Shown: positions 40,457 to 40,510 of the stretch, in pieces
How the letters are laid out: the number at the start of each line of letters is the position of its first letter
Numbering within the stretch: the stretch's first letter is position 1
Origin: Escherichia coli
Lineage (GTDB): Bacteria > Pseudomonadota > Gammaproteobacteria > Enterobacterales > Enterobacteriaceae
DNA: 64,000 bases
Direction: 5' to 3' (one strand)
NCBI RefSeq assembly: GCF_022846255.1
Contig: NZ_AP025682.1
The notes under the pieces: model-generated
Databases searched by the model: none
Told to the model about the DNA's origin: nothing
Seen by the model: only the letters and a program-made list of their open reading frames with translations
Made by a program: the position numbers and the translations under genes

Positions 40457-40510
40457 ATATACTATAGGGGGGTATGCATTGACATATAGCATACCCCCCT
40501 ATAGTATATT
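40457..40510 (+). promoter_or_regulatory. frmR promoter/operator: 20-bp perfect inverted repeat (TATACTATAGGGGGGTATGC ... GCATACCCCCCTATAGTATA) flanking TTGACA
   Basis: Perfect inverted repeat with an 11-bp spacer containing a TTGACA -35; the right arm overlaps the -10 region; 25 nt upstream of the frmR start. Consistent with known FrmR autoregulation at a C-tract/ATAGTATA site. Confidence 0.6.

Follow-up and report, generated by a model that had tools for sequence, protein, structure and literature searches.

A long inverted repeat upstream of Escherichia coli frmR is very probably a pair of inverted FrmR operator sites within the frmRAB promoter

In a 64,000-nt stretch of Escherichia coli DNA (hereafter the window; contig NZ_AP025682.1), a long perfect inverted repeat lies immediately upstream of frmR. 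We are highly confident that this palindrome serves as operator for the sigma-70 promoter of frmRAB and consists of two inverted 17-bp type I sites for FrmR, a repressor of the CsoR/RcnR family. The long perfect symmetry would then arise because two inverted copies of one asymmetric site face each other, rather than from a separately selected DNA structure. The operator palindrome has already been described in the literature and our observation is a re-identification, to which we add on a small scale the allele spectrum within E. coli, the confinement of the distal site to one clade, a difference in site spacing and a hint of co-variation between the arms. The elements of the locus are as follows.

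40431-40456, plus strand: conserved upstream block CCGGATAAATTTTATTCTCCAGTGTT, from alignment, kept in all three E. coli upstream contexts.
40457-40477, no strand assigned: left (distal) arm of the inverted repeat, ATATACTATAGGGGGGTATGC, from the repeat finder; invariant in 12 of 12 aligned E. coli sequences.
40459-40475, plus strand: distal FrmR type I site, ATAC-TATAGGGGG-GTAT, from a pattern search; matches the ATAC-N9-GTAT of Denby 2016.
40479-40484, plus strand: -35 hexamer TTGACA (consensus), from the promoter scan; its position is kept as TTGAC or TTGAT in relatives.
40489-40509, no strand assigned: right (proximal) arm, GCATACCCCCCTATAGTATAT, from the repeat finder; its inner bases 40489 and 40490 vary within E. 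coli (G>T, C>A, C>T).
40491-40507, plus strand: proximal FrmR type I site, ATAC-CCCCCTATA-GTAT, from the pattern search; the 17-mer is that of the single Salmonella site (locus L086).
40502-40507, plus strand: -10 hexamer TAGTAT, 17-nt spacer, from the promoter scan.
40512-40515, plus strand: predicted transcription start region, placed from the -10 position; the -29 centre given in Denby 2016 corresponds to a start at about 40512.
40534-40809, plus strand: frmR, 91 aa plus stop; NCBIfam FrmR equivalog NF008464, 189 bits (cutoff 133); product identical to PDB 5LBM.
40844-41953, plus strand: frmA, S-(hydroxymethyl)glutathione dehydrogenase; TIGR02818 at 743 bits and annotation in near-identical genomes.
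42045-42878, plus strand: frmB, S-formylglutathione hydrolase; TIGR02821 at 398 bits and annotation in near-identical genomes.

The repeat finder returned two 21-nt arms that are 100% complementary and lie 11 nt apart, giving the order ATATACTATAGGGGGGTATGC-ATTGACATATA-GCATACCCCCCTATAGTATAT over the 53 bp from 40457 to 40509, with ATTGACATATA as the spacer. The original prediction, made from the same DNA, had described a perfect inverted repeat of 20 bp; its perfection stands, and the length needs correcting to 21 nt since the 20-mer omitted the outermost A/T pair. The repeat stops there because 40456 and 40510 are both T. No other perfect inverted repeat in the 64-kb window reaches 16 nt with its arms within 60 nt of each other, and this one is the longest of the hairpin type; the chance expectation is roughly 1e-6 (64000 x 60 x 4^-21, rough arithmetic). 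Folded as single-stranded DNA the element forms a hairpin of -22.2 kcal/mol (z = -6.7), and none of 200 shuffled sequences folded equally well. Furthermore, the window contains exactly two copies of the 17-mer ATACTATAGGGGGGTAT, one in each arm, when up to three mismatches are allowed, compared with 0.04 occurrences expected, and the pattern search found no FrmR-type site in the 64 kb other than the two arms. Each arm carries one ATAC-N9-GTAT motif with a G6 or C6 tract, in line with the type I definition of a 3-8 bp G/C tract between AT-rich inverted flanks, so the two inverted operator copies that had been proposed are both present.

The two further inverted-repeat matches in the window are imperfect. 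The one of 89% identity spans 19 nt and contains AATTGTGAGCGGATAACAATT; it belongs to the lac promoter and O1 operator at 53658-53704 (examined within 53600-53720), with a CAP site upstream and the lacZ start codon near 53709. The other, at 2447-2494, pairs TCAGCCCTGACATTGTGCAG with CTGCGTAGTGTCAGGGCTGA over 20 nt at 85% identity, 8 nt apart, between two minus-strand ORFs, and might act as a terminator or regulatory hairpin.

The promoter scan places the operator on top of the predicted core promoter. TTGACA and TAGTAT together match the consensus at 10 of 12 positions and form the only sigma-70-like match between 40200 and 40900; an alternative -10, TATAGT at 40500-40505, would leave a 15-nt spacer. 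As had been predicted, TTGACA falls within the 11-bp spacer ATTGACATATA and the right arm overlaps the -10 region, the TAGTAT hexamer lying inside that arm. The distal site ends 3 nt before the -35 hexamer and the proximal site spans the promoter spacer together with the -10 hexamer, which leaves the -35 between the two sites and the -10 within one of them. The centre of symmetry of the palindrome, 40483, is position 5 of the -35 hexamer.

The identity of the downstream genes connects this operator with its regulator. Of 5426 complete E. coli genomes, 5415 contain the region at 95-100% identity, and the matching places are annotated as frmR and frmA. The encoded FrmR has 100% residue identity to the crystallised E. 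coli FrmR of PDB 5LBM, and its ATG at 40534 is preceded by a Shine-Dalgarno sequence, GAGG, at 40524-40527. As frmR starts 26 nt downstream of the palindrome, the operator sits at the operon encoding its cognate DUF156 repressor.

Published work on FrmR agrees with this assignment. Denby et al. (2016, Sci Rep 6:38879, PMC5146963, Fig. 6a) described a large inverted repeat, with its centre at -29, as type I FrmR sites in tandem, each of the form ATAC-N9-GTAT. In BLItz measurements FrmR bound Pfrm DNA with a Kd of about 220 nM, compared with about 3600 nM for control promoter DNA, and formaldehyde abolished the binding to Pfrm (PMC5146963); both the interaction and its release by formaldehyde have thus been demonstrated for the E. 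coli promoter. The formaldehyde cross-link is a methylene bridge between Pro2 and Cys35 that leads to release of FrmR (PMC5146963, PMC5016687). The Salmonella operator is a C6 tract with T/A-rich inverted-repeat flanks that is bound by two tetramers (Osman 2015/2016, PMC4528141, PMC5016687); mutation of one T/A flank left no FrmR binding detectable by fluorescence anisotropy, and formaldehyde weakens FrmR binding at this operator (both PMC4528141, PMC5016687). In a 2024 biosensor study, moving two ATAC-N9-GTAT sites into the constitutive promoter J23100 conferred FrmR-dependent repression (PMC11127321). In the same study, truncation of the native promoter just upstream of both sites abolished repression though the sites were kept (PMC11127321), and therefore the two sites alone may not suffice in the native context. 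The conserved block at 40431-40456, CCGGATAAATTTTATTCTCCAGTGTT, may contribute to regulation, for instance by DNA wrapping of the kind put forward for RcnR. The published evidence on the FrmR operator comprises binding assays, modelling and site transplantation. Rohlhill (2017) is said to have dissected Pfrm by sort-seq; our literature search, which that study lay outside, yielded neither a nuclease footprint nor a mapped transcription start for the E. coli promoter.

Gene identity, site structure, the 2016 study of Denby et al., the Salmonella site and the transplantation experiment together uphold the original proposal that FrmR represses its own operon through this operator. On the molecular level, FrmR tetramers bound to both copies when formaldehyde is absent would exclude RNA polymerase and thereby keep the operon, including frmR itself, repressed. 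Counted from the predicted start, the bound tetramers would cover approximately -55 to -39 and -22 to -6 and so occlude the polymerase contacts at the -35 and -10 elements. Formaldehyde would then create the Pro2-Cys35 methylene bridge, reshape the DNA-binding face and release the repressor. Steric occlusion of the polymerase, occupancy of each site by one tetramer and the exact position of the transcription start are presumptive parts of this model. The number of tetramers may differ from this: a single Salmonella site takes two tetramers (PMC5016687), and Denby et al. raise the possibility of one bridging tetramer (PMC5146963).

In order to place the two sites in a wider context we compared 80 FrmR loci, one genome per species, together with 21 loci retrieved by exact-protein look-up (approximately 100 loci). 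Most of the FrmR promoters among the 80 loci have a single site, TATACT-N7(C-rich)-AGTATA(GT), about 25 nt before the start codon, as in Xanthomonadaceae, Burkholderiales, Rhizobiales, Pasteurellaceae, Tatumella and Providencia; with ATACT-N7-AGTAT upstream of frmR in most of these 80 proteobacterial loci, the site itself is conserved. In a relative whose FrmR is 75% identical (L099), TTGACA is followed after 17 nt by TATAGT and one site fills the spacer and the -10. Across the approximately 100 loci, two sites bracketing a TTGAC or TTGAT -35 are found only in close relatives of E. coli FrmR (at least 79% identity), namely E. albertii, Edwardsiella, both Serratia loci, Plesiomonas, Erwinia, an Enterobacter-like contig and three metagenomic contigs. 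In the 14 related two-site promoters, 3-4 nt separate the end of the distal site from the -35, and the two sites start 32 bp apart in Escherichia and 33-35 bp apart in the other relatives. Counted on the sequences, promoters with 34-bp spacing have TATAGT at 17 nt from the -35, the position that in Escherichia is taken by TAGTAT. The conserved part of the FrmR promoters compared is limited to the 17-19-bp site cores. E. albertii has an uncompensated tract change, and the tracts are mismatched in Edwardsiella hoshinae and at both Serratia loci. In Erwinia endophytica the two sites, ATACTGGGATATAGTAT and ATACTGGTGTATAGTAT, are kept in direct orientation and the long palindrome is gone. This phylogenetic pattern suggests an ancestral proximal site, with the distal site added later as an inverted copy.

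Two other arrangements were seen among the loci compared. Two unclassified Proteobacteria (L032 and L048) have two inverted FrmR-type sites only 7 bp apart, in L032 as ATACCCCCAGGTAGTAT-ATTTGTT-ATACTGGGGGGGTGTAT, a layout unlike the enterobacterial one. At three loci with a Klebsiella-type frmR (L088-L090; protein P0068, FrmR 91% identical), the centre of the distal site has 10 nt instead of 9 nt and frmA does not follow frmR; a gene of the Fe-ADH family lies about 700 bp downstream of frmR in L088 and L089, and IS21-type genes are found in L090.

The spacing data bear on the bridging arrangement, in which one FrmR tetramer, a disc with two DNA-binding faces, would hold both sites and bend or loop the roughly 32 bp containing the -35, the inversion of the sites reflecting the two-fold symmetry of the sandwich. 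Denby et al., in raising this possibility, contrast site centres 31 bp apart in frm with 19 bp in rcnR-rcnA (PMC5146963), and the start-to-start spacing is held at 32-35 bp in 14 lineages. However, bending about 32 bp around a small tetramer would probably be energetically demanding, two tetramers already occupy the single Salmonella site (PMC5016687), and the sites of Erwinia endophytica are in direct orientation and therefore a fixed symmetric geometry is not required. We consider bridging unlikely, though the least unlikely of the alternatives weighed here, and favour separate occupancy of two FrmR sites.

Within E. coli, the exact 53-bp element was found in 3554 of 5416 records. A C>A change at 40490 defines a K-12-type allele (1033 records, 19%, K-12 MG1655 among them), because of which the MG1655 repeat is paired at 20 of 21 positions; full 21-nt perfection is thus an allele rather than a fixed feature. 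Further alleles have C>T at 40490, G>T at 40489, or A>G in the spacer at 40486 or 40488. Variation at the symmetry centre 40483 gives the -35 hexamer as TTGACA, TTGAAA or TTGATA, which are natural variants of promoter strength. Rare alleles of the right tract read CTCCCC, also the state in E. albertii, or C7. The left arm is unchanged in all 12 aligned E. coli sequences and the 19-bp cores ATATACTATAGGGGGGTAT are invariant in the first six aligned, while none of the arm changes among the alleles found is compensated in the opposite arm. Conservation within E. coli thus extends to the sites but not to the extra inner stem.

Between lineages, the arms of the two-site promoters tend to co-vary more than they do in shuffled alignments. 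Perfect repeats with differing tracts occur in three lineages:

E. coli: arm 21 nt, tract GGGGGG, spacer 11 nt, perfect repeat.
Edwardsiella anguillarum plasmid: arm 18 nt, tract GTGGAG, spacer 17 nt, perfect repeat.
L092 (Plesiomonas-type contig): arm 22 nt, tract GGGTGG with a different inner extension, spacer 8 nt, perfect repeat.

Among the 14 two-site promoters, 8 of 21 arm pairs are changed on both sides in one sequence or more, compared with 4.1 +/- 1.3 in shuffled alignments, only 1 of 500 of which reaches 8, and controls in which the arms were slid gave 0-2; unpaired cells make up 13% of the arm alignment. The mean distance between arms is 1.5 within a genome and 2.0 between genomes (permutation p = 0.04-0.07), the lower value being obtained by shuffling right arms among 12 lineages and the higher one, p = 0.07, when a near-duplicate was left out. 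These figures hint that the arms may evolve in concert. We tentatively entertain, as a possibility and at clearly less than even chances, that the distal site originated by lineage-specific inverted duplication of the ancestral proximal site, after which the two arms evolved in concert. Such behaviour could result from hairpin-templated correction by template switching at the quasi-palindrome, or from selection for sites of equal affinity or co-adaptation to an FrmR variant. Template switching at quasi-palindromes is a recognised mutational route; neither hairpin-templated correction nor equal-affinity selection of the arms is described in the FrmR literature examined. The G5/C5 tracts of one further locus (L105, 520-570) were not used as a paired change: homopolymer miscalls are likelier there because the frmA start is displaced and the FrmR is 96% identical.

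The same observations are relevant to the suggestion in the original prediction that the palindrome could form a cruciform. Extruded under negative supercoiling, or as single-strand hairpins, such a structure would modulate the promoter or be recognised as such, and the perfect 21-nt arms with their stable single-strand fold, the excess of paired arm changes over shuffles and the perfect repeats of 18-22 nt in three lineages would all accord with it. Yet the loop is 11 nt, and effectively 15 nt in K-12-type alleles, and loops of this size disfavour extrusion. The uncompensated C>A at 40490 is carried by 19% of E. coli records and other alleles break 40489 or the C tract; mismatched tracts recur in E. 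albertii, Edwardsiella hoshinae and both Serratia loci; the Erwinia sites are in direct orientation and most FrmR promoters have a single site. In addition, FrmR binds linear duplex oligonucleotides (PMC5016687, PMC5146963). The cruciform idea is not borne out by the loop length, the inner-stem alleles, the E. albertii tract change and the Erwinia arrangement, and we regard it as very improbable. The arm co-variation does not show a functional hairpin or cruciform, and two inverted FrmR sites continue to be the preferred reading.

Least probable of all, to the point of being scarcely credible, is a role for the palindrome as a transcribed RNA hairpin, be it a terminator or attenuator for upstream or opposite-strand transcription or a small RNA. 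The stem would be strong as RNA, and yaiO, upstream of the element in K-12, points in the same direction. The element nevertheless stays constant while the upstream gene varies by strain (tauA, yaiO or fbpC). A terminator scan of 40200-40900 found no terminator-like site and no T-run after the stem on either strand, and an Rfam search gave only sub-threshold matches to eukaryotic miRNA precursors, which scored 21-28 bits where the gathering scores are 73-140, as would be expected from any long hairpin. We rejected the terminator or RNA-element reading on the missing T-run and on Rfam matches that are spurious and far below the gathering scores.

The variable upstream context also concerns tauA, the divergently transcribed neighbour of the frm operon (start codon at 40228). 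In the window tauA lies directly beside frmR, an arrangement seen in only 594 of 5415 E. coli genomes. K-12 holds about 5.2 kb between tau and frm, comprising yaiO, yaiX::IS2, yaiP and yaiS, and in O157 strain Z892 fbpC is found upstream of the frm promoter. Homology to K-12 starts again at 40431, 26 bp before the palindrome. We also considered the palindrome as a regulator of the divergent tauA and rejected this, as the palindrome moves with frmR and the neighbour varies. Upstream of the frm promoter, the DNA between 40229 and 40456 forms a rearrangement junction, within which a 164-bp segment (40267-40430) is without counterpart in the K-12 frm-tau region. A REP-like sequence, GCCTGATGTGGCGCTCACGCCTCTTATCATGCCTAC, is located at approximately 40384-40420, and E. 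albertii (L006) has a related sequence. The window and K-12 share just 38 bp ahead of the tauA start codon, and therefore the control region of tauA may differ between strains.

In practice the assignment is useful for annotation and for the formaldehyde and methylglyoxal biosensors that are based on Pfrm. For biosensor design and for structural work on FrmR-DNA complexes, it offers the guidance that the proximal site is widespread and the distal site an add-on in close, mostly enterobacterial relatives; natural alleles at the -35 and at the inner arm ends, and the spacing of 32 bp in Escherichia as opposed to 33-35 bp in relatives, provide further guidance. It also poses the question of whether the inverted symmetry matters at all.

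The closest known system is K-12 Pfrm itself (Denby 2016, PMC5146963), which is the same locus and is identical to the window in the left arm, the -35, the -10 and both 17-bp sites. It differs in having A at 40490, where the window has C, so that its repeat is 20/21 as opposed to 21 nt perfect, and in its context, with yaiO to yaiS intervening where the window has tauA adjacent. The Salmonella Typhimurium frmRA operator (PMC4528141, PMC5016687) contains a 17-mer, ATACCCCCCTATAGTAT, identical to the E. coli proximal site, but Salmonella has one site only, without the distal copy or the long palindrome, whereas E. coli has two, and the Salmonella FrmR scores 90 bits against E. coli FrmR, compared with 186 bits for the E. 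coli self-match. The Salmonella site (L086, 1470-1500) ends 10 nt before the start codon, abutting the Shine-Dalgarno sequence, and is preceded by TGATAGTAT. From its letters TGATAGTAT resembles an extended -10, which would make the promoter geometry in Salmonella different from that in E. coli. At E. coli rcnR-rcnA, a locus outside the window, as summarised from Iwig & Chivers 2009 in PMC5146963, a paralogous tetramer of the CsoR/RcnR family binds tandem type I sites, each a G6 tract flanked by TACT/AGTA (TACTGGGGGGNAGTA) and each occupied by one tetramer. The rcnR-rcnA locus differs from frm in its signal (Ni/Co), in its regulator and in the distance between site centres, 19 bp there compared with 31-32 bp in frm.
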